This document shows, in pieces, positions 3,717-45,826 of a DNA stretch of 64,000 bases. Numbering within the stretch: the stretch's first letter is position 1; the number at the start of each line of letters is the position of its first letter. Location of the stretch: positions 375,259-439,258 of the forward strand of contig CAWFLT010000001.1 of the NCBI GenBank assembly GCA_963816795.1, in the 5' to 3' direction. Under the pieces are notes generated by a model. That model was not told the origin of the DNA and made no database searches. It saw only the letters and a list, made by a program, of their open reading frames with translations. The translations under genes and the position numbers were made by a program. This stretch comes from an uncultured Acidobacteriota bacterium (GTDB lineage: Bacteria > Acidobacteriota > Vicinamibacteria > Vicinamibacterales > SCN-69-37).

Positions 3717-4053
3717 CAATGGACAATCGACAATCGGCAACCTGCAATGGCAAACACATCGGCCATCGATAATGCCGATGGACAATGGGAAATCTCGCAA
3801 TCGATCCGGATCGCCAACCGACAATCGGGGCAACCAAATCGACCTGCAAATCGGCAATCGGCAATTGACCCGATGGGAAATTGACAAGGGACAATCGAGC
3901 GGCTCGATTGCCCCATTGTCCATCGGCACTTCGCGATTGCCCATCAAACTGAATTGTCCATTCGAAAAGATTTGCCATTACCCATTACCGATCGGGATTG
4001 TCGATTGCCGATGTGTTTGCCATTGCAGATTACCGATTGCTGATTGTCGATTA
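3717..4053. repeat. Family C element: ~335-bp imperfect palindrome built from CAATSG / CSATTG short units with ~45-bp terminal inverted repeats
   Basis: The left arm is rich in CAATGG/CAATCG and the right arm in CCATTG/CGATTG, centred near 3903. The reverse complement of 3717-3762 matches 4007-4053 (gccgatgtgtttgccattgcag..ccgattg..tcgatt). The right terminus is shared with 9107-9165. It lies between convergent genes. Confidence 0.8.
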
Positions 4054-4788: not shown

Positions 4789-6222
4789 TTGGGCAATAAT
4801 CCCGCCATGCGCCTACAGTCTTCTGTCGCTCTCGCCATGTTGGCCACCGGTGTGGTGCTGACTGCGCAAGCCCCTGCATCGCCCGACTGGACGCAGGCCG
4901 AAGTTGAAACGCTCCGCCACTTCCAGTCGCTGCTGCGGTTCGACACCAGCGACCCGCCCGGTAACGAGCTGCCCGCCGCTGACTACCTCAAGGCGGCCCT
5001 CGAGAAGGAAGGCATTCCGGTCCAGGTGGTCGCGCTCGAAGCCCACCGCCCCAGCATCATCGCGCGTCTGAAGGGCAACGGCCAGAAGCGGCCGCTGTTG
5101 CTGATGGCGCACACGGACGTCGTCAACGTCGATCCGAAGAAGTGGACGACGCCGCCTTTCGGCGCGACGCGCGACGGCGGCTACGTGTACGGGCGCGGCG
5201 CCGTGGACGACAAGGACAACGTCGCGGCGTCGCTGATGGTCATGCTGCTGCTCAAGCGGCTGAACGTCCCGCTCGATCGCGACGTCATCTTTCTCGCGGA
5301 ATCCGGTGAAGAAGGCAGCACACGCTTCGGCATCCAGTTCGTCGTCAATCAGCATTTCGCCGCAGTCGATGCCGAGTACTGTCTCGCCGAAGGTGGCAAC
5401 GGCACGCGGCGCGGCGGACAGACGCAGTTCGTCTCGGTACAGACGCTCGAAAAGATTCCTTACGCCGTCCAGCTCACGGCCCGCGGCGTCGCCGGCCACG
5501 GATCGGTGCCGCTCAAGACCAATCCGGTCGCGCACCTTTCGAAAGCGGTGGCGGCGATCGCCGATTGGAGTCCGCCGATTCGGCTGAACGAAACCACCAG
5601 CGCGTACTTCAAGCGGCTCGCCCAGATCTCCGCGCCGGATCTGGCCGCACGCTATCGCGACGTCCACGATCCGGCGAAGGCCGCGGCGGCCGACGCCTAC
5701 TTCCAGGAGCACGAACCGCGTCACGCCTCGATGCTCCGCACGTCGGTGTCGCCCAACATCGTCCAGGCGGGCTATCGCATCAACGTCATTCCGTCCGATG
5801 CGTCGGCCACGCTCGACGTCCGCGCGCTGCCGGGCGAAGACATGACCGCGTTTCTCGATCAGATCCGCAAAGTCGTGAACGATCCCACGGTCGAGGTCAG
5901 CCTCGGCCAGCGCGATACGCGGCCCGGCGGACCGGAAACGCGGCTGACCAGCGAAGCGTTCAAGACGATCGAGGCCGCCGTCATGCGCCACTACAAGGCA
6001 CCGACGCTGCCGACGATGAGCACGGGCGCCACCGACATGGCGTACCTGCGCAACAAGGGCATTCAATGTTTCGGCGTCGGCCCGGCGATCGATCTCGAAG
6101 ACGGGCCCAAAGGCTACGGGGCTCACAGCGATCAGGAACGGATACTCGAGAGCGAGTTGTACCGCTTCCTGCGCTTTTACTGGGACGTGGTCGTCGAACT
6201 GGCGGCGACGCGGCGATCGTGA
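4789..6222 (+). CDS. M20-family metallopeptidase (dipeptidase/carboxypeptidase-like), secreted
   Basis: LLMAHTDVVNVDPKKWTTPPFGATRDGGYVYGRGAVDDKDN and ESGEEG metal-site motifs. Signal peptide MRLQSSVALAMLATGVVLTAQA if ATG 4807 is the true start. Confidence 0.85.
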   Translation: MGNNPAMRLQSSVALAMLATGVVLTAQAPASPDWTQAEVETLRHFQSLLRFDTSDPPGNELPAADYLKAALEKEGIPVQVVALEAHRPSIIARLKGNGQKRPLLLMAHTDVVNVDPKKWTTPPFGATRDGGYVYGRGAVDDKDNVAASLMVMLLLKRLNVPLDRDVIFLAESGEEGSTRFGIQFVVNQHFAAVDAEYCLAEGGNGTRRGGQTQFVSVQTLEKIPYAVQLTARGVAGHGSVPLKTNPVAHLSKAVAAIADWSPPIRLNETTSAYFKRLAQISAPDLAARYRDVHDPAKAAAADAYFQEHEPRHASMLRTSVSPNIVQAGYRINVIPSDASATLDVRALPGEDMTAFLDQIRKVVNDPTVEVSLGQRDTRPGGPETRLTSEAFKTIEAAVMRHYKAPTLPTMSTGATDMAYLRNKGIQCFGVGPAIDLEDGPKGYGAHSDQERILESELYRFLRFYWDVVVELAATRRS

Positions 6223-7499
6223 TTAACGGCGTGGGGCCCCACCCCCACGCCTCGGGCCCGCGCCGGTAGAGCGGCGCGGGGTGTCTGCGTCGCTGACTGC
6301 GACACCGCGAAGCGCGGGAGCGCTGAGCGCCCGAGCCGCGGGGGTGGGGCCCCGCGGCCAAAAGCGGTACGCGACAGCAACACGCCCAGGGTGATGGCGT
6401 TGATCAGCGGCACCTGGATCCACCACGGCAGCGCCGCGTGCACCCACCAGACCTGCAGGGCCACGACCACCGGCAGGTGCACGATATAGACGAAGTACGA
6501 CGCATCGGCGACGTAGCGGCTGCGGCGTGACGGCCGATCGAAGCGCGCGACGAACAGCCCCGTCCACCCCGCCACTGACAGCGTCATCGTCAGGCTCGTG
6601 GCGAAGGATGCCGCCCAGCGCAGCACGTCGGCGTGTGCCGTCGCCCACGGCCCAGCCGTCACTCGCACGGCGGCCAGGCCCGCACCGACGAGACTCGCGA
6701 GTAATCCGAGCACAAGCAGCGACCGCCAGCGCTTCGCAGCGATCTGCAGCCAGGACGGGTGCCGAAACAGCCACCAGCCGAACGTGAACCAGAGACCGTA
6801 CACCGCCATCACGGGCCAGTTCGGGGCGAAGCTGCTGTCGGGTGTGTCGACGTCCAGGCCCTGCATCGTGGCGAGGATCGGCGTGAGCAGAATCGCGATG
6901 ACCACCGGAGCCGAGGCGACCGGTCATCGCCGATTCAAACAGCTGATCGACGCGTGCCAGTGCCGCACGGGCCGGTGCAGAGCGCGCGACGCGCGAGCCA
7001 TCCGACAGCCGAGCGCGAGCAGCGTGATCCAGAAGAGGTAATAGAGGAACCAGAGATGCGTCAGCCTCGTCTCGAGCACCGCCGATCCCAGCGCCAACGT
7101 GTACCACGGGAGCGAGTCGATGAGCGGCGGCAGTTCGAGCCAGCCGGTGGTGCGCCCCCCGGCGATCCAGAGCGCGCCCAGGACGAACTTCATCGGATAC
7201 AGCACGACGAAGAACACCAGCAGAATGCGGCGGAGGCGATCCCACACATAGGCGCGCGTGCCGCGGCGATCGACGACGAGCGCGCCGAAAAACCCCGCCA
7301 TCAGAAAGAAGATCTCGAGGCGGAAGCTGTGGAGGTAGTAGATGAGCCAGCCCAGCGTCGGCGACGGCTCGTCGGTCCCGACCGCCCAGGCACCGCCGGG
7401 CATCACGTAGGTCAGCGTGGAGTGCAGGAGGACGCCGAGCAGCAACGCCCACGCGCGCAGGGCGTCGAGGCCGTGCCACCGTTCGGACGCTGAGGTCAC
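6177..7499 (-). pseudogene. Acyltransferase-3 family membrane protein, interrupted, with its 3' end running through a repeat
   Basis: The N part (track 6924..7550) has WHGLDALRAWALLLGVLLH and HLWFLYYL; the C part (6177..6905) has hydrophobic helices. The two are in the same frame, separated by TGA at 6921-6923 (or by a compensating frameshift pair between ~7005 and ~6920). The likely start GTG 7499 overlaps the upstream TGA (GTGA). The last ~60 codons are encoded by Family A element 6228-6359 and overlap the M20 3' end. Confidence 0.65.
6228..6359. repeat. Family A element (complete hairpin form): two inverted GGGGCCCCACCCCC cores flanking a GGTGTC..GACACC centre
   Basis: Cores at 6233-6246 (+) and 6340-6353 (reverse complement). 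The arms pair over ~30 bp. The right half 6293-6355 is nearly identical to 10522-10584. It lies between convergent M20 and acyltransferase genes. Confidence 0.85.
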
Positions 7500-8935: not shown

Positions 8936-9165
8936 TTACCGATTACCCATTCCCCATCGCCATCCCATGCCGCCATTCCCCATCGCCATTCCCCATTTCC
9001 CATCGCCATTTCCCATTGCCCATTCCCATCGCCATTTCCCATTTCCCATCCGCACTTCCCATTGCCCATTTCACATTGCCATTGCCATTGCCAAATTGCC
9101 CATCAGGATTGCCGATTGCCGATGTGTTTGCCATTGCAGATTGCCGATTTCCCGATTGTCGATTA
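8936..9165. repeat. Family C half-element: ~230 bp of CCATTSC/CCCATYS short units ending in the conserved Family C terminus
   Basis: Tandem 6-7-nt units (cattcccc, catcgc, catttccc, cattgcc ...) in one orientation only. 9107-9165 matches 3996-4053 at roughly 55 of 60 positions. The terminal GATTA contains the DinB stop codon. Confidence 0.8.
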
Positions 9166-9633
9166 CCCCCCTTTCTTCAACACCCCAATCTGCCCCCCGT
9201 GGTACGCATGGTGCTGGGCGAGGCCGTGCAGCATCACTTCATGGCTCACGCCGGTGGCGAGCTCGCGGCTCTTCGCGCTTTGGGGCGGCGTGGTGAGCTG
9301 CTGAGGTGTCATGGCGCTGACCACCGCGACGAGCGCGGAGTGAGCGTCGAACAGCGTCTCAACGTCGCGCTGCCACGCCGCGGCGTCGTCCCCGGTCGGC
9401 GGCGGCCAGTCCCCGATCTCGGGCAACCCCGGCGGATGACCACCGAGCCGGCGCGTCACCTCCTGCGTCCACGCCGTCAAGTGACGAACGATCTCCCAGA
9501 TCGAATGGGCCGCGGGGATGGGCCGGCTGCGCGCCTGATCAGCCGTGACGTCTTTCAAGAGCGCCTGGATGGAATCGCCGTGCCACGGCTCGCCGGTGAT
9601 CGCCGCGGACAGCTCGTCGATGATGAGTTTCAT
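9163..9633 (-). CDS. DinB-family (DinB_2) metal-dependent protein
   Basis: Only the last 156 codons of track ORF 9163..10419 look real, from ATG 9633. Motifs WHGDSI, IWEIVRHLTAW, HHAYHGGQI (His triad pattern of DinB_2). Confidence 0.75.
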   Translation of the reverse strand: MKLIIDELSAAITGEPWHGDSIQALLKDVTADQARSRPIPAAHSIWEIVRHLTAWTQEVTRRLGGHPPGLPEIGDWPPPTGDDAAAWQRDVETLFDAHSALVAVVSAMTPQQLTTPPQSAKSRELATGVSHEVMLHGLAQHHAYHGGQIGVLKKGG

Positions 9634-9684: not shown

Positions 9685-10029
9685 ATGGAAATCCGCCTTT
9701 CCCTCGAACCGCACGACCACCTTGTCGTCCACCTTCGTGAAGGAGAACAGGAGACGACGGTAAGCGTTCCGAAGTCGCGGCCAGGCGCCGAGACACTGCA
9801 CCGGGCTCTCGAGGCAGCGCTTTCCCAAGGTTACGGGGAGTGCTTCTGGCCCGGCGTCGAAGGCGGCCAGTTCTGGTGGATGTTCCGGCGAGACGCCGAG
9901 ACGCTCGAAGTGGTGGTGATGTGGAGCCGCGGCGGCGCCTCGGGCTGGGAGCACGTCTTCCGCGCCACCGACAGTGCGGCCTGGGTGGCAGACAGCCTGG
10001 CGACTGAGCTCGCCAAGCTCAGATCTTAA
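9685..10029 (+). CDS. Hypothetical protein (114 aa)
   Basis: Tail of track ORF 8917..10029 from ATG 9685. It has good GC3 and a protein-like sequence (GECFWPGVEGGQFWWMFRRDAETLEVVVMW). I recognise no family. The competing antisense frame is arginine-rich junk. Confidence 0.5.
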   Translation: MEIRLSLEPHDHLVVHLREGEQETTVSVPKSRPGAETLHRALEAALSQGYGECFWPGVEGGQFWWMFRRDAETLEVVVMWSRGGASGWEHVFRATDSAAWVADSLATELAKLRS

Positions 10030-10030
10030 A

Positions 10031-10262
10031 TCGCGTGGGGCCCCACCCCCACGCTTCGGACGCTCGGGTCGCTCGCTACGCTCGCGCCCTCGCGGTATCT
10101 GTCGTCGCTCTTCTCCGTGTCCTCGTTCTTGATTGCTCGCGGGGCCCCACCCCCGCTCGCGCGCCGCGGCCGGCCTCACTACGTTCGGCCCGCGGCGGTC
10201 AGCTTTCTTAGTTCTTCTCCGTGTCCTCCAGCTCTTCTCCGTGTCCTCGTTCTTCTCCCAAC
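10031..10262. repeat. Family A composite: core - CTCCGTG array - core - CTCCGTG array (forward orientation)
   Basis: Cores at 10037-10050 and 10141-10154. TTCTCCGTGTCCTC units at about 10110, 10215 and 10236. Confidence 0.85.
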
Positions 10263-10326
10263 CCGGAACCACTCGGCGCCGTCGAACGTATGAATCACGA
10301 GATTGACCCTGGCCGGGAGAGGGAAG

Positions 10327-10509
10327 ATGTCGTTTTTGAAACGTCTGCTCGGAAAATCCGAACCGCCCAAGACCCGCGTGCGCATCTGCGTCGAATGCGG
10401 AATGCCTATCGCGGAGCACAAAGAATGGTGCTCCATCCTGCGCGGCCAGATGGAGATGAACAGCCGCGCCGCCCAGACCGCCCCGCCAAAGGGCCAGCCT
10501 AGCAGCTAG
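10327..10509 (+). CDS. Small C2HC zinc-ribbon-like protein (60 aa)
   Basis: ATG 10327 is preceded by GGGAGAGGGAAG (SD-like). MSFLKRLLGK...CVECGMPIAEHKEWC. Locally lower GC. Bracketed by inverted Family A composites. Confidence 0.45.
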   Translation: MSFLKRLLGKSEPPKTRVRICVECGMPIAEHKEWCSILRGQMEMNSRAAQTAPPKGQPSS

Positions 10510-10514
10510 AGCTT

Positions 10515-10718
10515 GCGGGCCCTGACTGCGACACCGCGAAGCGCGCAGCGCTGAGCGCCCGAGCCGCGGGGGTGGGGCCCCGCGCGTGGCGTTCTAACGC
10601 TTGGCCACGCGCGCGGAGAGCACGGAGAAAGGGCCAGAGGGCACGGAGAAGAACAGTTGACACCCCGCGCCGGTGTATGGCGCGGGCCCGAGCCGCGGGG
10701 GTGGGGCCCCGCGGCCCT
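10515..10718. repeat. Family A composite in reverse orientation (inverted partner of 10031-10262)
   Basis: Cores (reverse complement) at 10568-10581 and 10697-10710. CACGGAGAA units at about 10619-10655. Its reverse complement has the same modular order as 10031-10262. Confidence 0.85.
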
Positions 10719-10787
10719 AAGCAAAGAAGCGCGCCGCGCCCTGAGCGAGGCCGTATTGCGGCCGAGTCGAAGGGTTCAGTCTCGTAC

Positions 10788-12134
10788 ATGCCCGACAAGT
10801 CCGAGCCCGAGGTCCTGACGGTCGCCGGTCGCGAGGTCCCGATCTCGAATCCGCGTAAGGTCCTCTTCCCGGACGCCGGTCTCACCAAGCTCGATCTGGC
10901 CACTTACTACATCGCGGTCGCCGATGGCGCGCTTCGGGCCGCGGGCGGGCGTCCGAACGTGCTCGTCCGCTATCCCAACGGCGTCAAGGCCGAGTTCTTC
11001 TACCAGAAGCGCGCCCCGGCCTCGCGACCCGATTGGATCGAGGTCGTCACGCTCAGCTTCCCGTCTGGCCGTACCGCCGAGGAAGTCGTGCCGCGCGACG
11101 CGGCCGCGCTCGCGTGGATGGCCAACCTCGCGTGCCTCGAGCTGCATCCCCATCCGGTGCGCGCCGACGACGTCGACCATCCGGACGAGCTGCGGGTCGA
11201 TCTCGATCCAGTGCCGGGCGTCGACTGGGACCAGATTCGCCAGGTCGCGCGGGTCGTCGAAGCGACGCTTGCGGACTTCGGGCTCGTCGGATGGCCGAAG
11301 ACGTCGGGATCCCGCGGCATGCACGTCAACGTCCGCATCAGGCGGGAGTGGACGTTCCATCAGGTCCGCCGCGCCGCACTGGCGCTCGCGCGCGAAGTGG
11401 AACGGCGGGCGCCGTCGCTGGCCACGAGCAAGTGGTGGAAGGAAGAACGCCACGGCGTCTTCATCGACTACAACCAGAACGCCAAGGATCGAACGGTCGC
11501 CGCGGCGTACTCCGTGCGCCCGACGCCTGACGCGCGCGTCTCGGCGCCGCTGACGTGGCCTGAGATCGACGAGTGCGTGCCCCAGGACTTCACGCTGTTA
11601 ACGATGCCGGAGCGGTTCGCCGCAGGCGGCGACCGCCATCAGGGCATCGACGAGGCCGCGGGATCGCTCGAAGCGCTGCTCGAGCTGTCGGCGCGCCACG
11701 AACGCGAAGGCCAGGGCGATGCCCCGTGGCCGCCGCAGTACAAGAAGCAGCCGGGCGAACCGGCGCGCGTGCAGCCGTCGCGGCGGCGAGTACCGAAGCA
11801 TCCGCTCGTCGAGATCGGCCGGGCGGAGAAGAAAGAGGATGCCCTGGCCGGCCTCGAGCGCTGGCGGACACGGCATCCGGAGGCAGCGGCCCATCTCGAA
11901 CCGGCCGACGTGCTCGTCGATGCGATGCGCGGCCGCTTTCACACCTGGACGCGGATCCGCGTCAATCTGCAGCACGTGCCGGAGGCGATCCGGCCCGCAC
12001 AGGAGGCGCTCGATCCGGACGCCGGTCCCGATATCGCCGCCGAGTGGGAAGCGGCGGTGAAGCGAAGTGAGAAGCGCGCTACGAATGGTCGCGCGACGTA
12101 CGAAAGACGCGCTCGAGCTCGTAGGCCGGAGTGA
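10788..12134 (+). CDS. LigD-polymerase-domain / Prim-PolC-like primase-polymerase with C-terminal extension
   Basis: ATG 10788 inside track ORF 10572..12134. Motifs ISNPRKVLFP, LVRYPNG, ELHPHP, DELRVDLDP, KTSGSRGMHV, FIDYNQN. A ~150-aa C-terminal tail resembles stand-alone mycobacterial Prim-PolC. Confidence 0.85.
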   Translation: MPDKSEPEVLTVAGREVPISNPRKVLFPDAGLTKLDLATYYIAVADGALRAAGGRPNVLVRYPNGVKAEFFYQKRAPASRPDWIEVVTLSFPSGRTAEEVVPRDAAALAWMANLACLELHPHPVRADDVDHPDELRVDLDPVPGVDWDQIRQVARVVEATLADFGLVGWPKTSGSRGMHVNVRIRREWTFHQVRRAALALAREVERRAPSLATSKWWKEERHGVFIDYNQNAKDRTVAAAYSVRPTPDARVSAPLTWPEIDECVPQDFTLLTMPERFAAGGDRHQGIDEAAGSLEALLELSARHEREGQGDAPWPPQYKKQPGEPARVQPSRRRVPKHPLVEIGRAEKKEDALAGLERWRTRHPEAAAHLEPADVLVDAMRGRFHTWTRIRVNLQHVPEAIRPAQEALDPDAGPDIAAEWEAAVKRSEKRATNGRATYERRARARRPE

Positions 12135-13164: not shown

Positions 13165-13228
13165 AGAAGGCCCAGGGCCCAAAGGCGAGGGGCCCAGGTA
13201 AGAGCTTACTGTCTTCGCCAACCGCAGG

Positions 13229-13257
13229 GCGCCGGATAACGTCTGGTCATCCGGCGC
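13229..13257. promoter_or_regulatory. Perfect 9-bp inverted repeat (GCGCCGGAT-N11-ATCCGGCGC) in a divergent promoter region
   Basis: Seen directly, followed at once by TAGTATAGA (-10-like), 22 nt upstream of permease ATG 13280. Confidence 0.4.
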
Positions 13258-13279
13258 GTAGTATAGAGAACGGTTTCTT

Positions 13280-15794
13280 ATGATTCAGGACCTGAAGCAC
13301 GGGATTCGGATGCTCTTTCAGACCAAGGCCTGGACGGTCGTGGTGCTGCTCTCGCTGGCGATCGGCATTGGCGCGAACACGGCGCTGTTCAGCGCCGTGA
13401 ACGGCCTGCTCCTCCAGACCGTCGACGCGGCCAATCCCCAGTCGCTGGTCAAGCTCAAGTGGACCGGCGACAACAACATGGTCCGCAACTCGAGCGACTA
13501 CGGATACTCACTGCCGTTCGAAGGGGGCAACGTTCGCTCGACGTTTTCGGTGGCTGTCTTCGAGGAGCTTCGCAAAGCCAACCAGACGCTGACCGACATG
13601 TTCGCGTGTTTTCCGATTGGCGCCGTCAACGTCGTCATCAACGACGAAGCGGACCTTGCGTCGGCGACGGGAACGTTGGGGCCCTACTTTCACCTGCTCG
13701 GCGTGCCGGCCGCACTCGGGCGGACGCTGACGGGTGACGACGACAAACCGGGCGCGACGCCGGTGGCGGTGATCAGTCACGCCTTCTGGCGAAAGCGGTT
13801 CGGGTCCGATCCCAACGTCGTCGGCCGCAGCGTGACGATCAACAACCAGCCGTTCACCATCGTCGGCGTCACGCCGGCGTCGTTCAAAGGCATTCAGCGC
13901 CTTGGAGTGGACGCGCCGGACGTCACGTTGTCGATGTCGCTCGAGTCGCAGATGATGGTCGGCCAGTCACGGTTCACGCAGCCGACGAACTGGTACGTCC
14001 AGATCGTCGGGCGGCTCAAACCGGGAGTGACGGCCGATCAAGTGCGGGCGAATCTCGAGGGCGTCTTTCACTCGACCGCGCGGGCCGGCATGGACGCGTA
14101 CACGAACGCGCTGACGCCCGAGCAGCGCGCGCTCTCGACGAACCGCCGTGAGAAGTTCGCAGTCCCGCGTTTGCTCGTGTTGCCAGCGGCCGGTGGCATC
14201 TACGACTTCGACAACCAGGCGGCGCAGACCACCAGGATCCTCGCCTGGGTGGTCGGTGTGCTGCTGTTGCTCGTGTGCGCGAACGTCGCGACGCTGCTGC
14301 TGTCGCGGGCGACCGCCCGGCGAAAAGAGATCTCGATCCGTCTCTCCATGGGCGCGTCACGGCACCGGCTGATTCGACAACTGCTGACCGAGAGTCTGGT
14401 CCTTTCCGGGCTCGGCGGATTGCTCGGTATCGCCGTCGGCTACTGGAGCCGCCAGTTGCTGCCGTTCGGCCAGAACGTGCCGCTCGACTGGCGCGTCTTC
14501 GCGTTCGTCGGTGGGCTGAGCATGTTCACCGGCGTGTTGTTCGGCCTCGTCCCCGCATTCCGCACGACGCGGGTCGATCTGGCGAGCGCGATGAAGGAAG
14601 AAAGCCGAAGCGTCGCCGGCTCGAGATCACTGCTGAGCAAGAGCCTGCTCGTGCTCCAGGTGGCGCTTTCGCTGGTGCTGCTCATCGGTGCCGGCTTGTT
14701 TCTCAGGACGGTCAACAATCTCCGAGACGTCAACATCGGCTTCAATCCGAACAACCTGCTGATGTTCTCGCTGAACCCCGCACTGAACCGCTACGACATC
14801 GATCGGACGGCGCTGCTGATGACGCAGGTGCGCGATCAGCTCTCGGCGTCTTCCGGGCGTGCGCTCGGTCGCGCTGACACGAGTGCTTCTGCTCTCCGGC
14901 AGCCGCAGCACGTCGTCGATGAGCCTGCCCGGTGGCACGAAGGAAGACGTGCACATGATGTCGGTGTCGCCTGAATTCTTCGCGACGATGGAGATTCCGC
15001 TGCTGGCCGGTCGGCAGTTCGGCACGATCGACACCAAAGAATCGCCGAAGGTCGTGATCATCAACGAGGCGGCGGCGAGAAAGATGTTCGCGGATCAGTC
15101 CGCCGTCGGGCGCACGTTTGGCTCGGCGCCTGAGAACACCGGCGAGTACCAGATCGTCGGCGTGGTTCGCGACACCAAATACGCCAGCCTGCGCGAGCCG
15201 GCGCCGCCGACGGTGTATCAGCTCTACTCGCAATATCCGAACCGGGCGATGAACTACGTCGTGCGGACGGGCGGCGACCCGAGCGCCCTGATTGAACCGG
15301 CCCGCACAGCCGTACGACGCGTCGATCCAGCCGTCCCGGTGACGAACGTTGCGACCCAGACGGAACACATCGAGCGCCGCTTTCAGCAGGAGCGGCTGCT
15401 GGCCAACGCGATGACCCTGTTCGGCGGTCTGGCGCTGTTGCTCGCCTCGATCGGGTTGTTCGGACTGATGTCGTTCAACGTCTCGCGACGGACGAACGAG
15501 ATCGGCATCCGCATGGCGCTCGGCGCTCAGCGAGGCAGTGTCGTCTCGATGGTGCTCCGCGAGTCCTTGCTGCTCGTCGGCAGCGGCGTCGCCGCCGGCA
15601 TCGCGCTCGGCATTCTGCTGCCCAAGCTGCTGACGAAGTTCATCGCGCCGATCCTGTTCGGCCTGCCGCCCCTGGATCCCGCGTCCATGAGCATCGCGAT
15701 CGTGCTGATCTTGCTCGTATCTGCCCTCGCCAGCTACCTCCCGGCCCGGCGCGCCTCACGCGTCGATCCGATGGTGGCTTTGCATCGGCAGTAG
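13280..15794 (+). CDS. ADOP-family (MacB/FtsX-like duplicated) permease, one frameshift near 14849
   Basis: Track ORFs 13280..14974 and 14859..15794 join as ...QVRDQLSA|LPGVRSVALTRVLLLSG... if base ~14849 is skipped. N-terminus MIQDLKHGIRMLFQ, two FtsX-like 4-TM modules, C-terminus YLPARRASRVDPMVALHRQ. Confidence 0.8.
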
Positions 15795-15834: not shown

Positions 15835-15995
15835 AGAGAAGGCACAGAGATGAGCTCGGCGCTCTTCTCCCCGTGCCCTCTAGTTTTAGGGGCGCGGGGC
15901 CCCACCCCCGCGCCTCGGGCCCGCGCCACACGGCGGCGCGGGGTGTCCGCTTTTGTTCTTCTCCGTGCTCTCTAGTTTTTCTCCGTGTCCTCGTC
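15835..15995. repeat. Family A element (one core plus CTCCGTG arrays)
   Basis: Core at 15896-15909, ...ggcgcggggtgtc, then TTCTCCGTGCTCTC and TTCTCCGTGTCCTC. Lies between convergent permease and VOC genes. Confidence 0.8.
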
Positions 15996-19231: not shown

Positions 19232-21994
19232 ATGCGCGCCGCTCTGCATTGGCTGCTCCGCTTCTTCACCGCGAGCGGCGATCGCGCCGCCATCGTCGGT
19301 GATCTCGAAGAGGCGTATCGTCGGGACCGCGCACGGCGCGGCTGGCTGCGGGCGGAACTCTCGCAAATTAGAGAAGTCGCGGCCGCGATCGGCCACGCTG
19401 GAAAGGATCGCATGCGCTCCGATCAAGACTCTGGACCCGCGCGCGCCTCGATCATCCACCGGTTCTTCGTCGCCGCGGATGTGCGCTACGCCTTGCGCCG
19501 GTGGCGCCGCCGCCCGGGCTTTCCGATCGCGGCCATGGCCACGCTCGGCATCGGCATCGGCGCCACGACGGCGATCTTCTCGGTGATCGACGCCGTGCTG
19601 CTCGCACCGCCGCCGTGGACCGACCCCGATCGTCTCGTCTCGATTCATGCGGTGTTTCCCGACCGGCGCCAGAATCCGCTGGCGGCGGCGACGTGGAATC
19701 GCGGAATGGTCTCGTACCGGGCATGGGACGCGCTTCGGGAGCGGCCAGAGTTCGAGGATGTGGCAGTCTGGCGTCGTCGCGGTCTCGACACGACGTTTGG
19801 TGACGACCGGACCGAGATGGTGGAGAGCCTGGACGCGTCGTCGCGCTTCCTCCCGACGCTCGGCATCCCGTTGGCCCACGGCCGCACGTTCACCGCGGTG
19901 GAGGACACCCGGCCCACCGACAGCGTCATTGTCACCTACGAAGCGTGGCAACGACGGTTCGGCGGCCGGGCCGACATCATCGGGCAGACGGCGACAGTCG
20001 GCAGCGCGAGCTCAGGCGGCCGGAAAGTGGTGACGGTCGTCGGCGTAGTCTCGCGCGGGTTCAGCTTCGACGGCCGCCCGATCCCGGAGCTCCTGTTTCC
20101 GGTCGGCATTGCCTCGGAAACGGGTCACACGTATCCGAGCGACTCGCTGCGGGTCGTCGCGCGCCTCGCTCGCGGCGTCTCGCCCGAAGCAGGAGCGGGC
20201 GCAGCAGACACGATCGTTCGGGCGGTCGAAACCCGTGAGCTGACGACCGCGCGGATCGTGCCGCTCATCGAGGACCAGTGGAGCGGTGCGGGGCGGCCCC
20301 TCTGGGTGCTCTTCGGCGGCTCGGTCCTACTGCTCCTTGTGGCCTGCGCCAACGTCGCCGGCCTGCTTCTGAGTGAAGCGCGCGCACGGCGTCACGAGAT
20401 CGCCGTGCGAGCGGCGCTCGGCGGCACACGCGCGCGAGTCGTCCGACAACTGCTCGTCGAGCATCTGCTCCTGGCCATCGCCGGCACCGCAGTCGGGCTG
20501 GGCCTGGCGTACCTCGTCATGCAAACGTTCGTGGCGGTCGCACCGGCGGGCCTGCCGCGCGTGGAAACGATTGCGCTCGACCCGCGGATCGCGACGTTCG
20601 CCTTGGCGCTTGGCGGTCTGACACTGCTGTTGTTCGGCGTGGCACCCGCCCTCTCAGTCTCGAGGACACGCACGTCCGCGGTCCTGGCCGAAGGCGGCCG
20701 CGATGGCGCCGTGAGCCGCCTCGTCGGCCAGCGGTTCGTCGTCGCAAGCGCGATCGCATTGGCGCTGGTACTGCTCGTTGGCGCCAGTCTGCTCGGTGAA
20801 ACGCTGTACCGCCTGACGTCGCGATCGCTCGGCTTCGATCCAACATCGCTTGCGGTCGTGTCGTTCCGGCTGACGGGCCTGCCGCCGAGCCAACAGAAGC
20901 CGCTTCAGCCGGGCGACTACGAACGCATGACGCTGGCCGAGAAGGTCGCGCGAACCGATCAGTTCCTCAAGCACATGACCATGGGTTGGTGGCTGCACAT
21001 GGACGGCGCGATGGATCGCGTCGCCGCACTGCCGTCGGTGACCGCGGTGGGCGGCGCGTACTCAGTGCCCTTCACTGGCGGTCGCATCGCAGCGACGGTC
21101 CGGCGCGCCGATCAGCCGGCGAACGAGACCACCCGGGTCCGCTCGTTGTCGATCACCGCCGGCTACTTCGACGTCATGCGGATTCCGGTCGTGAATGGCC
21201 GCGCGCTTCAGGCCAGCGACCGAACTGGAGAGATTCGACGTCGCCCAGGCGTCGCGCCGACGCCGCGGCGGATCGTGATCTCGCGGGAGCTCGAGCGGCG
21301 CCTCTTCTCTGGCAGCGCCGTCGGCCAGCGAATCTTGCAGGCCGACTACGACCGCGATCTCCTACTCGACGTGGTCGGTGTGGTGGAAGACAGCCGCTGG
21401 CGCGGCTATGGCGACGATGACCTGGCGACCTTCTACACGATCGCCGAAGGTTCAGGCACGCTCAACACGCTGTTCGTCCGGACGGCGATGGCGCCGGAGG
21501 CGGTGCTACCGTCGATTCGCGCCACGCTCCGGGCCTACGATCCAAAGATCGTTGTCACCTCCACGACGACGATGTCTGCACTGGCCGATCAATCGATTGC
21601 CGAAGAACGGCTCCGGGCGGCACTCTCGGCGATCTTCGGCGGCGCCGCGCTGTTGCTCGCCGCCGTTGGCCTGTACAGTCTCGCCGCGAGACGGGTCGCC
21701 GACCGGCGGCGCGAGATCGGCGTGCGCGTCGCGCTCGGCGCCCGGCCGCGTGACGTCCGGCGGCTCGTGCTTCGCGACGCCCTGCTGACGGCCGCCGTCG
21801 GACTGGCGATCGGCGCGCCGCTCGCCTACATGGCGTCGCAGGTCACGCAGTCGATGCTCTTCGGCGTCACAGCGACTGCGCCGCGAGTGTTTCTCGCGGC
21901 CGGCGCGACGCTCGCCGCGGCCTCGATCATCGCCGCGCTCCTGCCAGCGCGACGCGCCGCCACCATCGATCCGATCCTGGTGCTCAAGGAATAA
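19232..21994 (+). CDS. ADOP-family permease with N-terminal permease-prefix domain (intact, 920 aa)
   Basis: Single uninterrupted ORF. Prefix LLRFFTASGDRAAIVGDLEEAY, then VRYALRRWRRRPGF, two FtsX-like modules, C-terminus LLPARRAATIDPILVLKE. Confidence 0.85.
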   Translation: MRAALHWLLRFFTASGDRAAIVGDLEEAYRRDRARRGWLRAELSQIREVAAAIGHAGKDRMRSDQDSGPARASIIHRFFVAADVRYALRRWRRRPGFPIAAMATLGIGIGATTAIFSVIDAVLLAPPPWTDPDRLVSIHAVFPDRRQNPLAAATWNRGMVSYRAWDALRERPEFEDVAVWRRRGLDTTFGDDRTEMVESLDASSRFLPTLGIPLAHGRTFTAVEDTRPTDSVIVTYEAWQRRFGGRADIIGQTATVGSASSGGRKVVTVVGVVSRGFSFDGRPIPELLFPVGIASETGHTYPSDSLRVVARLARGVSPEAGAGAADTIVRAVETRELTTARIVPLIEDQWSGAGRPLWVLFGGSVLLLLVACANVAGLLLSEARARRHEIAVRAALGGTRARVVRQLLVEHLLLAIAGTAVGLGLAYLVMQTFVAVAPAGLPRVETIALDPRIATFALALGGLTLLLFGVAPALSVSRTRTSAVLAEGGRDGAVSRLVGQRFVVASAIALALVLLVGASLLGETLYRLTSRSLGFDPTSLAVVSFRLTGLPPSQQKPLQPGDYERMTLAEKVARTDQFLKHMTMGWWLHMDGAMDRVAALPSVTAVGGAYSVPFTGGRIAATVRRADQPANETTRVRSLSITAGYFDVMRIPVVNGRALQASDRTGEIRRRPGVAPTPRRIVISRELERRLFSGSAVGQRILQADYDRDLLLDVVGVVEDSRWRGYGDDDLATFYTIAEGSGTLNTLFVRTAMAPEAVLPSIRATLRAYDPKIVVTSTTTMSALADQSIAEERLRAALSAIFGGAALLLAAVGLYSLAARRVADRRREIGVRVALGARPRDVRRLVLRDALLTAAVGLAIGAPLAYMASQVTQSMLFGVTATAPRVFLAAGATLAAASIIAALLPARRAATIDPILVLKE

Positions 21995-28078: not shown

Positions 28079-28414
28079 ATGCCGAAGCACTCGAACGATC
28101 GTTTGCAGGGCACGCTCGACCTGGTCGTGCTGAAGACGCTGCAGGCGCGCGGCGCCATGCACGGATACGCGATCGCGAACCTCATCCTCCAGATCTCGAG
28201 CAGTGTGCTGCGCGTCGAGGAGGGATCGCTGTATCCGGCCCTCCATCGGATGACGCAGGCCGGTTGGCTCCGGGCCGAATGGGGCGCTTCTGAGAATGGC
28301 CGGCGCGCCCGCTACTACTCCATCACGCCGGCCGGACGTCGTCAGCTCGCGGAAGAAGAGAAGAACTGGGCTGCGCTCACGGGAGCGGTCAGCCAGGTGC
28401 TGAGGTTGGTGTGA
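28079..28414 (+). CDS. PadR-family transcriptional regulator
   Basis: MPKHSNDRLQGTLDLVVLKTLQARGAMHGYAIANLI ... SLYPALHRMTQAGWL. The stop overlaps the permease start (GTGATG). Confidence 0.85.
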   Translation: MPKHSNDRLQGTLDLVVLKTLQARGAMHGYAIANLILQISSSVLRVEEGSLYPALHRMTQAGWLRAEWGASENGRRARYYSITPAGRRQLAEEEKNWAALTGAVSQVLRLV

Positions 28415-31097
28415 TGGTGCGCCGACTCCTGAGTTGGATCGGCGACCGCCTGCGGCGTCGGGATCTCACCGCAGAGATCGACGAAGAGCTGCAGTTCCAT
28501 CTCGACGCACGGATCCGTGACAACCAGGCGGCTGGCATGTCGGACGCCGAGGCGCGCCGCGACGCCTTCCGGCGGTTTGGCAGTCGGGCCGCGCTACGCG
28601 AAGCCACGCGTGACGCCAATCTCTTCGTCCACGTCGAACGTCTCTGGCAGGATCTGCGGCACGGCGCGCGTATCTCCGCCAAGAATCCGGCGCTGACGGC
28701 GATTGCGATCATTTCGATCGCCTTCGGCACCGGCGCGAACGTCGCCATTTTCAGCATGGCCGATACGCTTCTGCTGCGGCCGCTGCCGGTGCCTCGGCCG
28801 AGCGACCTCGTCAGCATCGGTTCGCGCGTCCGAAACGGCCCTTTCTATCGCACGGCGACGTCGTACCCCGACTATCTCGACGTCCGCGATCGAACGCAGA
28901 GCTTCGACGGCGTCCTCGCCTTCGTCCATGAGACCGTCGGCTTGACGACGACGGTCGGCGAGCTGCCGCGCGTCCGCTTCGCGACCTTTGTCAGCACCAA
29001 TTTCTTCCCCGTCCTGACGATCGAGCCGCAGGTCGGACGCGGCTTCCTCGCGGACGAGGACGGGAAGGCGCGCCCTGACACGGTCGCGGTGCTGAGCGAC
29101 GCGTTCTGGCGCGGCCAGTTTGGCGCCGATCCGAACATCCTCGGCCGGACGATCCGCGTCAGCGGCGTCGAGGTCACGATCGTCGGCGTCGCGCCGGCCT
29201 CGTTCAGTGGACTCGATCGCTACCTGCCGGACGAGGTCTTCCTGCCGGTGACGATGCTGCCGCGCGTCGGAAACGTACCGACACCCGCAGTGCTCGACGC
29301 ACGCGACGCACGCGTCCTGGTCGCGAAGGGCCGCTTGCGGCCCGGCGTCACCCTCGACCAGGCCGACGCCGAACTGGCGGCGCTCGGGCGCGACCTCGAG
29401 CGACAGCATCCGGTAACGAATTCACACCAGACGCTCCTCGCGCAAACCGAGCTTGCCTATCAGGCGACGCTCCGGCCGCTCGATCTCTCGCTCGTCATCA
29501 TCTTGACGACGCTCTCGATCGCCGTGCTGTGCGTCGCCTGCGCCAACGTCGCAGGCCTCCTCGCGAGCCGCGGACCCGTACGGGCGCGTGAGATGGCGCT
29601 CCGGCTCGCCATCGGCGCCGGCCGTGGCCGGCTGGTGCGCCAACTGCTCACTGAGAGCCTGGGCATCGCGATCGCCGGCGGCGCCGGCGGCATCGCGGTC
29701 GGCTGGCTGGGCATCTCGCTCCTCCGGCAGATCCAGTACCCGACGGAGCTCGTCAAACACCCGCGTTTCGATCTCGATGAGCGGGCGCTCCTCGTCGCGA
29801 TCCTCGTCGCGATGGCGAGCGCCGTGCTCGTCGGGCTCGGGCCGGCGCTACAGACGACGCGCGTCGATCTGGTGTCCACCCTGAAGTCGACCGACCGCGG
29901 CCGCGCCGTCCGGTATCGGCCCGCCGGCCGCTCCATCCTCGTCGCGGTCCAGGTCGCGCTCTCGCTCGTGCTCGTCACGGTCTCCGTCTATGCCGTGCAG
30001 GCGTTCCGGCAGGAGCTCGACGCCGGTCCTGGCTTTCGCACGACGCAGATGACCAAGGCGACGATCAGCCCCAGCCGCGCCGGATACAAGGACGTCGATG
30101 CCGTGCGATTCCTGTCGCGCGTCGTCGACGAAGCGCGCGCTCTCCCCGGCGTGCGATCGGCGTCCGTGACGTCTGCGATGCCGCTCTTCTCGTTCGACTT
30201 CGCGATGGTGGCCCCCGAAGGCGAGACCGTCGTGGACGATCAGTCGCGTGTCCCCGACCTGGGCCAACAGCATCGACGACCGCTACTTCGAGACCATGGG
30301 GATTCCGCTGCTGGCCGGGCGGACGTTTGTCCGCACCGATGACGCCTCCGCGCCACTGGTGGCGATCGTCAACGACACGTTTGCGCGGCGGGCGTGGCCG
30401 GGGGCCGATCCGATCGGCAAACGCATCCAGCGGGTCGATGCCGGACGCGAACTGCATGAAATCGTCGGCGTCGTGACGACGTCGACGTATGGCATTCCCG
30501 GCGAGCTGCCGCAAGACGCCGTCTACTTCCCATTCCTCCAACAGCGGCCCGGCGAGATGGTGCTGCTGGTCCAGACCGCCGGCGAATCTGCCGCCGTGCT
30601 CGAGCCCGTGCGCGATCTCGTCCGGCGGTTGGACCGCGACGTGCCGCTCTCAGACGTTCAGACCATCGAAACCTTCTACGACACTCGTGTCACGACGTTC
30701 GGCACCCACATGGTCAGGCTCGTCGGCGGCATGGGCGTGATGGGCGTGCTGCTCACGATGGTGGGGCTGTACGGGCTCGTCTCGTACGCGGTCAGCCGGC
30801 GCACCCGTGAAATCGGCATCCGCATCGCGATCGGCGCGACGTCGGCCCGGATCGTCAGGATGATTCTGCGCCAGGGGATGGCGCCCGCGTGGGCGGGCCT
30901 CGCGGCCGGGTTGCTCCTGAGCGTCGCGCTCAGCCGTCTCATGTCCGGACTCGTGCCGTTCTTCGGTTATCGCGTCAGCGCCCAGACCTACTCCGTCGTC
31001 GTGCCCCTCCTCATCGCGATCTCGCTCGCCGCCTCGTTCACTGCCGGCGAGACGGGCGGCCGGCGTCGATCCGACGACCGCCCTCCGCGCCGAGTAG
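28411..31097 (+). CDS. ADOP-family permease with prefix domain, two frameshifts (about 30245 and 31040)
   Basis: Track ORFs 28411..30342 and 30248..31189 join at ...VVDDQSRV|SPTWANSIDDRYFETM. The canonical C-terminus SLPARRAAGVDPTTALRAE* (stop 31095-31097) is in the next +1 frame. Confidence 0.8.
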
Positions 31098-31185
31098 CGT
31101 CCGTCGTATTATCTGTCCGGCAATTACGCCAGGTCTCGAAGTCGCGCGGCACCGGCTCGAGCACGTTCGCTCAAGGAGAGTGTCC

Positions 31186-31579
31186 ATGAAGAATTCCATT
31201 CGTTCGCTTGTGCTGCTGACGGTGCTGCTCATCACAGCAGGATCGGTCCGCGCGGATTCAACCCCGATCATTCAAGGTGCGGTCTCTGGTCTCGAGATCT
31301 GTCAACTGACGAGCTGCGGGTCGGCCATCTTCATCGGTGTCTTCAACGGACAGGTCGGCTTCAACACCAAGGCGCTCGGCACCATCGCGGTCGCCGTCAA
31401 GCACGATGAGTTGCCGGACAGCGCAGGGCGAGTGCGCGGACATCACCGGGGGCGAGTGGGCCATGTGGGTGGGCCTGCGGCGCTTCGAGGGATCGACCAC
31501 CGGGGAGCTCTGCTTCAACCCCAACAACACTTTCTCGGTGACGGTGACGATGGACCTCGACTTCCGCGGGCTCAGGTGA
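31186..31579 (+). CDS. Small secreted hypothetical protein, one frameshift near 31420
   Basis: AAGGAGAG then ATG 31186. MKNSIRSLVLLTVLLITAGSVRA signal. It continues in the frame of track ORF 31337..31579 (AQGECADITGGEWAMWVGL...). Confidence 0.55.
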
Positions 31580-36091: not shown

Positions 36092-36233
36092 AGCGGCATC
36101 CTAACGTCGAGTTGTGACACCCCTCTAACTTTTGCGCCCCTCTTACGTAATACCGGAAGGACGCTCGCTGGTGCTGGTCCGGACCTGACCGGCAGTGTGC
36201 GGTGTCTATCTTCACATCGCTTCGGGAGATCCC

Positions 36234-38643
36234 ATGCGGGAATGGCTGCAGGACCTGCGCTACGGCGCCCGGATGATCCTCAAACGGCCGGGTACGTCGG
36301 CGATCGCCATCGTCGCGCTCGCGCTTGGCATCGGACTGACGACGACGATGTTCTCGATCGTGCAGGGCGTCATGCTGCGCGGGCTGCCGTTTCCTGAGAG
36401 CGAGCGCATCATCATTGTGTCGCGCGCGACGGTCCAGAATCCCGACCGGCGCGACAGCCCGCCACCGCACGATTTCACGGATTGGCGGGCCCAGCAAAAA
36501 TCATTCGAATCGCTCGCCGGGTACTCCAACACGAGTGTGACCCTCTCCGGCGACAGCGGCTTTCCGGAACGGTTGCGCGGCTCCCGGATGACGCCGAACA
36601 CGCTCGCCGTCCTCCGCGTCGCGCCGATCGTCGGCCGCGACTTCTCTGAGGCAGACGCGGCGCCCGGGGCGCCGCCGGTCGCTCTCATCGGTCACCGCCT
36701 CTGGCAGGGGCGCTTCAAGAGCGATCGCGGCGTCGCCGGCACGGCCATTCGCCTGAATGGCGTCATGACGACGATCGTCGGCGTGATGCCGGAAAAGTTC
36801 GGCTTCCCCGAAGCGGAACAGATCTGGCTGCCGACCGGCATCGAGCTTCCCGCCAAGCGCGGAGAAGGACGGTTCATGCGGGTGATCGGCCGCCTTCGTG
36901 ATGGCGTCACGCTCGAACACGCCAGGGCCGAGATGGACGGGATCGTCCGGCAACTGGCGGCGGCCCATCCGGAGAACAAAGACACGATCGCGAACGTGAC
37001 GCCGTTCATCGAGCAAGCCGTGCCGACGCGGATCAAGACGACGTTCTACACGATGCTGGGTGCGGTCCTCGGGGTGATGCTCATCGCTTGCGTCAACGTG
37101 ACCAACCTGCAACTGGCGCGTGCCGCCGAGCGGGCGAAGGAGTTTGCCATCCGCACCGCGCTTGGCTCGGGACGCTGGCGGATTCTGCGCCAATCGCTGG
37201 CCGAAGGGCTGGTGCTGTCGGCGATTGGCGCGGCGCTCGGTCTGGGCATTGCGCAATTCGGCGTCACGTACTTCATGGGCGCCATCGCCGAAACGCAGCC
37301 GCCCTTCTGGATCGACGTGCGCCTCGATCTGACGGTCCTCGCGTTTGTCACCGCCATCACCGTCGCGGCCGCGCTGGTCTCGAGCGTGGCGCCCGGCCTT
37401 CGCGTGTCGCGTGCGGACGCGACCTCAGCCCTGAAAGACGACACGCGCGGCGCGACGAGCCTGCGCATGGGCCGCTTCAGCCGCTGGCTCGTCGTCGTCG
37501 AAGTCGCCGTCTCCTGCATTCTGCTGGTGGTGTCGGGCCTGATGATTCGCAGCATCCTGACCACGAGCCGGCTCGACTACGGCTTCGCCACCCGCGATGT
37601 GTTTTTCGCGCAGGTGTCGTTCGATACGCGCACGCACGCTGACAATCCGGCCGTCCTTCGTGCACTCGAACAGTTCGAAGAAGGAATCAAGCGCGTGCCA
37701 GGCGTCCGACACGTCGCGTTCTCGACCGGCGTGCCGGGCACCGGCTTCTCGCCGCCGTTTCGGCTCGAAGGCCAGACGTACGCCAAGCCCGAAGACCGGC
37801 CGCGAGCGGCTCAGATCAACGCCACGCCCGCCTTTTTCGATGTGCTCGGGATCGCGGTCCGCCACGGCCGGCTGTTCACTCAGGCCGACACGGAAGGCGC
37901 GGATCGGGTCGCCGTCGTGGACGAAGCCTTCGTCGCTCGGCATCTTCGCCGGCGGCCCGGCGATCGGCAAGCGGGTGCAATTCGGTGACGACGGCAAGGC
38001 GCCGTGGATCACGATCGTCGGCGTGGTACCGAGTCTGGCGGAACAACGGAATCCGGGACAGGTCGTCGAATCGATCTATCTGCCATTGGCGCAAAACCCG
38101 AACCGTGGGGTCACGGTCCTGGCGCGCACGGGCAATGACCCGGTCGCCCTGACGTCCGGTATTCGCGGTGCACTCTCGGCCGTCAGTGCCGAAACGCCGC
38201 TGAACAATCCCAACTCGCTCGCGGGCGAGTTCTGGCGACAGGGCTGGGCGTTCCGGCTCTTCGGCGGTCTCTTCCTGACCTTCGGCGCGGCAGCGCTGAT
38301 TCTCGCCGCGGCGGGACTGTACGGCGTGATGTCGTTCACCGTCCGCCGGCGCACGCAGGAAATCGGCGTGCGGATGGCGCTCGGCGCGAGTCAGCGCGGC
38401 GTCTTGCGGATGGTGCTCTGGCAAGGTCTCTGGCGCGTCGCAGTCGGCGTCGCGATCGGCCTGTGGCCGGGCTGGTTTGTCGGCACGCAAATGCAGGCGC
38501 TGACCTCGAACGTCTCGCCCGCCGATCCCGTCGTCCACGTGACCACTGCGGTGACGTTGCTCATCTCTGGCGCGATCGCCAGCCTGGTTCCCGCGATGCG
38601 CGCGTCGTCGGTGGATCCGTTGACGGCGCTGAGGAGAGATTAG
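36234..38643 (+). CDS. ADOP-family permease (no adjacent PadR), one frameshift near 37935
   Basis: GGGAGA then ATG 36234, MREWLQDLRYGARMILKRPG. Track ORFs 36195..37988 and 37597..38643 join at ...VAVVDEAFVARH|(L)FAGGPAIGKRVQF. C-terminus LVPAMRASSVDPLTALRRD. Confidence 0.8.
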
Positions 38644-45818: not shown

Positions 45819-45826
45819 TTTTTCGA

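Follow-up and report, generated by a model that had tools for sequence, protein, structure and literature searches.

The region considered here, 10031-10718, lies in a 64,000-nt stretch of contig CAWFLT010000001.1 from an uncultured bacterium of the order Vicinamibacterales (hereafter, the window). It contains an open reading frame (ORF) for a 60-aa protein at 10327-10509, placed between two oppositely oriented clusters, or arms, of a dispersed hairpin repeat that we call Family A; neighboring parts were followed over 9685..12134. A preliminary description of this DNA had listed two cores and CTCCGTG units on each side of the ORF, arranged in the same module order in both arms, and this inventory proved accurate; we read the order on both sides as core, second GC hairpin, units. 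From the inventory a composite mobile cassette had been proposed. We consider it probable, instead, that the locus is a chromosomal gene with its own promoter standing between two separately acquired Family A clusters.

The small gene, its product and its upstream motif

A homolog search found 1,123 relatives of the 60-aa protein; the 120 that were listed were 69-98% identical and 52-77 aa long, and 84 homologous loci were fetched for comparison. The gene is present in 310 GTDB species genomes (one genome per species), nearly all of them Vicinamibacterales or Acidobacteriota metagenome-assembled genomes. An exhaustive profile search returned a compact family, with only 159 representatives at 50% identity, essentially all of them small. 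Among the multi-domain relatives, P0239 and P0247 proved to be junk of repetitive sequence, and P0210, P0235, P0173 and P0249 resemble products of read-through or frameshift calls. A genuine protein with CCHC knuckles in tandem is P0265, but its similarity is distant only.

In an alignment of 27 members the residues C21, C24, H31 and C35 are invariant, the ligand spacing CX2CX6HX3C is unchanged, and most of the segment MS(F/L)LKRLLGKSEPPKxRVRVCVECGMPVAEHKEWCSILRGQ is invariant as well; the same alignment places the start at ATG 10327. Mean entropy at codon positions 1, 2 and 3, computed over 83 loci, was 0.48, 0.33 and 1.22 bits, respectively; variation is thus concentrated at third positions, which argues for purifying selection on the protein. 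No other ORF between the arms has a coding signal. The Shine-Dalgarno (SD)-like sequence noticed earlier in front of this ORF is there (GGGAGAGGGAAG), and GGAGG-like tracts occupy the equivalent place in homologous loci.

Two properties that the preliminary description had ascribed to the gene, a lower GC content and a zinc ribbon-like product, held in part. The GC content of the ORF is indeed lower, 0.61 versus 0.67, but the deficit comes from codon positions 1 and 2, while GC3 (0.79) is neighbor-like; moreover, GC of the coding sequence was below that of its own locus in 84 of 84 homologous loci. The lower value is therefore explained by amino-acid composition, and a foreign origin was ruled out by the host-like GC3 together with the same offset in all 84 loci. 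As for the product, the ORF is a genuine small gene, and its four invariant residues point to a zinc-binding protein, but not to a zinc ribbon. The AlphaFold2 (AF2) model, with mean predicted local distance difference test score (pLDDT) of 75, has one knuckle, a short helix at 28-31 and a helix at 36-51, with no second beta-hairpin. Judging from the alignment and the model, the protein appears to be a CCHC knuckle with a treble-clef-like layout.

Membership in the zinc ribbon family Zn_ribbon_3 was rejected, as the score of 13.1 bits stays below the cut-off of 27 and the second beta-hairpin zinc knuckle is absent. The zf-CCHC zinc knuckle has the spacing CX2CX4HX4C; with the spacing CX2CX6HX3C and no Pfam match to zf-CCHC, the 60-aa protein was not assigned to this retroviral-type family either. 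The protein resembles zf-CCHC and DUF2116 in the Cys-Cys-His-Cys order within 15 residues, in the very small size of the domain and in the helix behind the knuckle; it differs from them in ligand spacing, in having sub-threshold or no matches, and in having no structural match. We regard these proteins as a putative new, well conserved family of small CCHC zinc proteins.

In many loci (e.g. L034, L016 and L042) a strong hairpin lies directly behind the stop codon, which indicates that the gene is normally a self-contained unit; in the window this spot is occupied by the right inner Family A element. All-against-all clustering of neighboring ORFs gave no conserved gene neighborhood beyond lineage-level synteny, and the large clusters of neighboring ORFs were antisense or low-complexity artefacts. 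In one subclade (L023, L041, L065, L073, L074, L076 and L078) the small gene is followed, at 40-80 nt, by another conserved gene, which extends over about +200 to +1250 relative to the start of the small gene. Inspection of the product of this second gene showed a DPLLxF motif at the N-terminus, a coiled coil, a single transmembrane helix and, at the C-terminus, a PEGA-like domain (YVGTLSIDAxPGGEVFVNR...). Several loci of this subclade do not have the upstream motif described below under the pattern used.

Upstream of the small gene we observed a conserved motif, CCAACCnnGAACC-N9-CGTCnAACGTA, at 10259-10289, which the logo prolongs to 10291; its shorter written form is CAACCnnGAACC-N9-CGTCnAACGT. 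The motif was found with invariant N9 spacing in 64 of the 84 homologous loci, and in most loci it ends 20-40 nt before the ATG. The logo of 63 distinct regions reads gcCAACc.tGAACC.....cc.cCGTC.AACGTATc and is not palindromic. When the strict core, GAAC[CG]-N9-CGTCNAACGT, was scanned over 1.39 Mb of fetched sequence, 60 of its 61 matches were directly upstream of the small gene. The window has one perfect match to the motif; the sole other match has three mismatches.

In promoters of extracytoplasmic function (ECF) sigma factors, AAC is typical of the -35 region and CGT(C/A) of the -10 region (PMC5758882). A pattern of this kind is present twice in the motif, as CAAC-N17-CGTC and as GAAC-N17-CGTA, in registers offset by 7 nt; the double AAC-N17-CGT pattern was found at 10259-10291 and in 63 distinct homologous regions. 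We infer that the motif represents one or two overlapping ECF-type promoters. It is similar to group 4 ECF promoters, e.g. those of B. subtilis sigma W/X/M/V (PMC5758882), in the AAC and CGT(C/A) elements, in the spacing of ~17 nt and in the short leader to SD and ATG; it differs in that the pattern is doubled at a 7-nt offset and is confined to one gene in the sampled DNA. A sigma-70 promoter scan found nothing.

Family A repeats and the variation of the two arms

Family A proved to be a genuine hairpin repeat, modular in build and dispersed. Its core 14-mer, GGGGCCCCACCCCC, occurs at 10037 and 10141 (+) to the left of the ORF, at 10568 and 10697 (-) to the right of it, and further at 6233 (+), 6340 (-), 15896 (+) and 23077 (+); these eight matches are spread over five intergenic sites of the 64 kb, with 0 expected from shuffles. 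Units of the TTCTCCGTGTCCTC type start at 10111, 10215 and 10235 (+) and at 10616 and 10637 (-), and they are seen again beside the cores at 15.9 kb and 23.1 kb (12 matches versus 0.63 expected); Tandem Repeats Finder (TRF) reported a 20-nt period at 10210-10258. In folds, each core forms a GC stem of 8-11 bp that closes a CCCCAC loop, and a second, variable GC hairpin comes next. The CGTGGGG...CCCCACG variants carry a compensatory change that preserves the stem; the variant of core hairpin 1 is also found at 6233 and is common in metagenomes, and second hairpin modules of the GCTCGGGTCGCTCGCTACGCTCGCGCCCTCGCGG type are also present behind cores in the metagenome contigs L094, L178 and L196. 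An Rfam search of 5.5-24 kb at E <= 1 gave nothing in the region, the sole match being a chance-level one to sRNA P34 at 13228-13404. A strict terminator scan gave two minus-strand sites, which is the chance level, and it did not pick up the hairpin at 10162..10197.

The preliminary description had treated the arms as one large inverted repeat. The inverted orientation is confirmed, but the common stretches of the two arms are just 34 nt at 85% identity and 19 nt exact. The segment 10647-10720 is closest to 15886-15959 (88% over 74 nt), and 10547-10584 is identical to 6319-6356 (100% over 38 nt); with their best copies elsewhere in the window, the arms are not each other's closest counterparts. 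The left arm had been drawn up to 10262; the repeats are in place, but this end runs into the predicted promoter of the gene, which starts at 10259.

At 6.3 kb an ORF reaches with its tail into the Family A copy. This acyltransferase (Acyl_transf_3) ORF, at 6223-7479 (-), runs through both copies at 6230-6356 before its stop, and the acyltransferase gene call in L001 stops short of the repeats; Family A copies may thus extend the C-terminal tail of the acyltransferase in the window strain.

Of the 84 homologous loci, only L001 (98% protein identity) and L042 have Family A cores, L042 a single one; nearly all other loci that carry the gene are without Family A. In L003 and L005 (87% identity) the gene is directly upstream of the LigD primase-polymerase (PrimPol) gene, with ~35 nt from stop to start and no Family A; by sequence comparison we read this as an empty right-hand site. 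In L004 the gene has unrelated neighbors and no repeats. LigD is downstream in L001 and L003/L005 only, among the 84 loci, as well as in the strain contigs L205-L207. A functional link to non-homologous end joining (NHEJ) through LigD was rejected, since the adjacency is limited to the closest relatives.

A population view was obtained from L001, L002 and L205-L207, where the protein is identical or near-identical to that of the window. L206 is like the window, with two cores in each arm. In L001 the left arm is without the 29-nt unit and the middle segment of the right arm is replaced; in L205 the left arm has one core and the two right cores have collapsed to one hybrid. L207 has no left arm, with a complete right arm and LigD downstream; there a metallo-beta-lactamase gene ends ~15 nt before TTTTTCTCCCAACCC. 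L002 has no left arm either and the same upstream gene, and its contig ends within the inner element of the right arm. The distance from the end of the metallo-beta-lactamase gene to TTTTTCTCCCAACCC in these two contigs is about 15-20 nt, and their homology to the window starts at the promoter edge (10248). The left arm was found only where a gene for a 114-aa hypothetical protein (hyp114) is the upstream neighbor; the left cluster is situated in the 3' region of this gene. The right inner element is kept in L001, L206 and L207, and in L002 up to the contig end, and is degenerate in L205. Among these strains the arms vary independently, gaining, losing and recombining modules.

The metallo-beta-lactamase-fold gene (HAHYDHAGG motif) adjoins the small gene in L002 (2-817) and L207 (about 2160-2835), and is situated ~3 kb upstream of it in 12 other loci, including L043, L076 and L023. 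In close relatives, the DNA upstream of the small gene is a hotspot of rearrangement.

The Family A core, CGYGGGGCCCCACCCCCRCG, is abundant in Joint Genome Institute (JGI) soil metagenome contigs: at least 120 stretches with the core were collected (L085-L204). The contigs have 60-71% GC, and some of them encode proteins that share 60-79% identity with those of Vicinamibacterales loci. In 83 unique instances a T-rich tract (-15 to -7) and A/T-T-T precede the core and CCCTG follows it; a GTAG or CGTC tag is absent from the position matrix of these instances. The T-rich side of the core abuts the start of an opposite-strand gene in 71 of 95 informative left flanks, with the ATG usually 10-25 nt off, so that the layout in gene direction is hairpin, CTAA, purine-rich tract, ATG; examples, by N-terminal sequence, are upstream of SerC-like, RplK-like and AtpC-like genes. 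Co-directional (tandem) gene pairs show an orientation bias of 26 to 7. In the window, the right outer element (10695-10730) has the majority orientation relative to the LigD ATG at 10788, at a distance of 75 nt; its T-rich end module, CCCTAAGCAAAGAAG on the plus strand, points toward the LigD start.

BOX elements of Streptococcus pneumoniae have the modular structure boxA-boxB(n)-boxC. Family A is similar to them as a modular composite in which the number of internal tandem units varies and the number of modules is strain-dependent; its sequence is unrelated, its host is of high GC, its units are 20 nt long and its core is a short GC hairpin. A closer comparison is with repetitive extragenic palindromic (REP) sequences and bacterial interspersed mosaic elements (BIMEs), for which the GTAG- and CGTC-tagged superfamilies are described by Di Nocera et al. 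2013 (PMC3733652). Like these, Family A has GC-rich imperfect palindromes of 20-24 bp, within the 20-40 bp of a REP stem-loop, in many extragenic copies; it forms inverted dimers (6233/6340) or clusters, has compensatory stem variants, shows rapid gain and loss at strain level and could plausibly act as RNA hairpins. It differs in lacking the unpaired GTAG or CGTC end tag (PMC3733652), its core being flanked by a T-rich tract and (A/T)(A/T)TT at one end and by CCCTG at the other, and in its accompanying second hairpin and 20-nt pyrimidine-rich tandem units. Also, Family A is found mostly at gene starts in metagenomes, whereas classical REPs are situated downstream of coding regions for the most part (PMC3733652). 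A literature search for the core sequence found no paper, and one for Vicinamibacter and REP gave nothing specific. On sequence grounds Family A appears to be a REP/BIME-like dispersed hairpin family.

Features of the focus region and its nearest neighbors (window coordinates)
Feature	Position	Strand	Basis
hyp114, 114-aa hypothetical gene upstream	9685..10029	+	ORF list; called as gene in syntenic L206, L205
Family A core hairpin 1, GCGTGGGG-CCCCAC-CCCCACGC, compensatory T/A stem variant	10033..10054	+	core match, fold
Weaker GC hairpin, second module of left element 1 (GCTCGGGTCGCTCGCTACGCTCGCGCCCTCGCGG)	10058..10098	+	fold
CTCCGTG unit 1, within ~29-nt segment missing from L001	10107..10130	+	repeat match, L001 comparison
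Family A core hairpin 2, absent in L205	10138..10157	+	core match, fold
Strong GC hairpin, then T-rich tract TCAGCTTTCTTAGTTCTTCT; candidate terminator of upstream gene	10162..10197	+	fold
Tandem CTCCGTG units 2 and 3, 20-nt period	10210..10258	+	repeat match, TRF
Conserved ECF-type promoter-like motif, CAACCCGGAACC-N9-CGTCGAACGTAT	10259..10291	+	comparison of homologous loci
Shine-Dalgarno-like GGGAGAGGGAAG	10315..10326	+	sequence inspection
Gene for 60-aa CCHC zinc-knuckle protein (predicted)	10327..10509	+	homologs, alignment, codon statistics, AF2 model
Right inner Family A element: second-hairpin module 10527-10556, core hairpin 10565-10584	10515..10586	-	core match, fold
Extra 10-bp GC hairpin between right cores; absent in L001, L205	10581..10613	.	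inverted-repeat list, fold
Two inverted CTCCGTG units, plus strand CACGGAGAA; absent in L001, L205	10616..10654	-	repeat match
Right outer Family A element: hairpin 10664-10686, core 10695-10712, T-rich end module	10659..10730	-	core match, fold
LigD primase-polymerase gene, downstream neighbor	10788..12134	+	Pfam PF21686, E = 3.9e-87

The hyp114 product has no match in Pfam or NCBIfam; other neighbors are DinB_2 and DNA ligase genes.

Alternative explanations of the locus

A composite mobile cassette, with the inverted Family A composites acting as terminal inverted repeats that mobilize the enclosed gene, could draw on the module order common to the two arms and on the difference in upstream neighbor between close relatives (hyp114 in the window, the metallo-beta-lactamase gene in L002 and L207). 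We consider it extremely unlikely. The stretches common to the arms are limited to 19-34 nt and each arm is closer to other copies; the gene is without repeats in almost all fetched loci, while 310 species genomes carry it. Relatives lacking the whole unit are not the pattern seen: either one arm is gone (in L207 and L002 the left arm is simply missing while the right arm remains, with LigD behind it in L207) or the repeats are gone and the gene is kept (L003, L004 and most others). No transposase gene was called in syntenic loci, and the outer flanks, GATCTTAAAT and CTAAGCAAAG, do not form a direct repeat, i.e. there is no target-site duplication. The independence of the arms, together with the absence of a transposase and of a target duplication, led us to reject the cassette. 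Assignment to composite transposons or to miniature inverted-repeat transposable element (MITE)-type cassettes was likewise rejected, as counterpart terminal copies, target duplication and transposase were all missing. For two clusters, opposite orientation is a one-in-two outcome; the shape of an inverted cassette seems, by these sequence comparisons, to be incidental and without the character of a mobile unit. Another possibility is that the right composite serves the expression of LigD, as a 5' leader with a stabilizing hairpin and a purine-rich ribosome-loading tract, and is not a feature of the small gene. The metagenome flanks, the bias in co-directional pairs and the like orientation of the right outer core relative to the LigD ATG all speak for this; however, the spacing here (core 10695-10712, ATG 10788) is 75 nt, not 10-25 nt, L003 has the same gene pair without the element, and the bias could stem from an insertion preference for A/T-rich ribosome-binding regions. 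We find this explanation quite unlikely. A wider, joint reading would combine a Vicinamibacterales-wide stress module (double ECF-type promoter and CCHC protein) with Family A, which unlike classical REPs is biased in orientation and has its T-rich end 10-25 nt from start codons, as a mobile 5'-leader or ribosome-loading module and more than a 3' hairpin; we hold this joint reading to be unlikely. The zinc protein that takes part in this joint reading belongs to a family without a Pfam, NCBIfam or PDB relative.

Several observations weigh against our preferred interpretation, a gene with its own ECF-type promoter between two separately acquired clusters. The motif was absent, under the pattern used, from 20 of the 84 loci, and no ECF sigma gene was seen among the ten mid-size window ORFs tested, a check that was not exhaustive. 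The near-exclusive tie of the motif to one gene would equally fit the site of a dedicated repressor or activator. That the motif is an operator of a dedicated transcription factor, or some other DNA or RNA element, would agree with its being essentially unique to the small gene in the 1.39 Mb and with the conserved blocks in the would-be spacer (GAACC) and past the would-be -10 (AACGTAT), which are odd for a single promoter; two overlapping ECF-type promoters at the 7-nt offset, however, account for every conserved block, the distance of 20-40 nt to the ATG in most loci, with the SD between, suits a promoter, and a palindrome is absent. An operator is thus unlikely, in our estimate. On the side of the protein, the Pfam search gave no match above cut-off (zf_C2H2_13, Zn_ribbon_3 and DUF2116 had E = 0.04-0.09), the NCBIfam and PDB sequence searches gave no match, the best fold match of the AF2 model in a Foldseek search of PDB had E = 1.7, and the function has no homology support. 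Finally, in the minimum free energy (MFE) fold of 10025-10730, at -361 kcal/mol (z = -5.4 versus shuffles), the right unit array and the outer core form pairs with left core 2 and the left unit array. This is what one would expect if, in read-through RNA from the upstream gene, the arms paired as a long duplex enclosing the small gene, with the duplex cut by RNase III or blocking translation and the gene thereby insulated from upstream transcription, a role also hinted at in the preliminary description. A structural role of such pairing in read-through transcripts may exist in the window strain. However, nearly the whole left arm lies upstream of the predicted promoter (10259-10291), so one partner would be missing from the normal transcript; L001, L205, L207 and L002, with the same or nearly the same protein, lack the pairing partners; and each core folds as a stable local hairpin. 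We rate insulation by the stem-loop as very unlikely, and a conserved role for the inverted geometry is unlikely too.

With the interpretation of a self-contained gene between separately acquired clusters, the locus could work as follows. The small gene would be transcribed independently; its product, a predicted zinc protein of 55-60 residues conserved across Vicinamibacterales, has an N-terminal MS(F/L)LKRLLGK tail, a CxxC-x6-H-x3-C knuckle and a C-terminal helix. Most likely, a dedicated or small-regulon ECF sigma factor would switch the gene on under some stress, and the protein could then act as a small zinc-knuckle binding factor. In the lineage of the window, Family A copies, each made up of one or more T/C-rich 20-nt units, a core hairpin of 20-24 bp and a second GC hairpin, would have colonized both intergenic spacers separately: the left cluster would belong to the 3' end of the 114-aa gene, and the right one would occupy the spacer from the small gene to LigD, its T-rich end turned toward the LigD start. 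The likely, incidental effect of the hairpins would be termination or 3'-end stabilization of the upstream and small-gene transcripts. Local roles of this sort are plausible for the left hairpins with the T-rich tract, as a terminator of the upstream gene, and for the right inner core, as a terminator or 3' stabilizer of the small gene.

Other repeats and genes of the window, and significance

Another repeat family of the window comprises intergenic arrays of 7-13-nt units (GATTGCC, CCATTCCCCATCG) at 8942-9168 and 3718-4052, with GC about 0.53; its inverted copies pair 3718-3793 with 3977-4052 and 3732-3786 with 9095-9149. Other Vicinamibacterales have tandem arrays of their own, made of short oligonucleotides, beside the small gene or its promoter: in L003 at 5700-5940, in L004 at 5860-5930, in L047, L052 and L056 upstream of 5001, and in L028, L072 and L044 downstream of the gene, with units such as GAAGTAC, CCTTTGTGT, CTTCTGC, TGGGGGCT, GGGGATC and TTACCCGA. 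Arrays of this microsatellite-like, species-specific kind seem to be a general trait of the intergenic DNA of Vicinamibacterales.

An ORF of 1,246 aa at 59928-63668 (+) contains an internal repeat of roughly 310-nt period in about ten copies (families D2, D3, D7 and D11); its product is probably a tandem-domain surface protein. Paralogous genes for MacB/FtsX-type ABC permeases at 13280-15794, 19232-21994, 28411-31189 and 36195-38643 have conserved DNA blocks in common (families D1, D5, D13-D15 and D20), and their L001 homologs are annotated as MacB_PCD/FtsX. A 34-nt inverted repeat, 45082-45115 with 45794-45827 (88% complementary, arms 678 nt apart), surrounds a gene of the PD-(D/E)XK_3 nuclease family (PDDEXK_3) at 45223-45708 (-); TCTTCACGG 9-mers are found nearby, at 45787-45813.

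The locus carries a caution for sequence interpretation: where a dispersed repeat forms inverted clusters on both sides of a short gene, sibling genomes should be checked before the arrangement is called a cassette. Family A shows fast intergenic turnover among strains that share identical coding sequence, and, given its bias toward start codons, it may offer a natural setting for work on the effects of mobile hairpins on translation initiation. Vicinamibacterales rank with the most abundant of the uncultured bacteria in soil, and their gene regulation is almost uncharted. A protein found in more than 300 species, together with an almost invariant ECF-type promoter, offers a testable way into a stress response of these bacteria; the promoter sequence could lead to the cognate sigma factor and to further members of its regulon.

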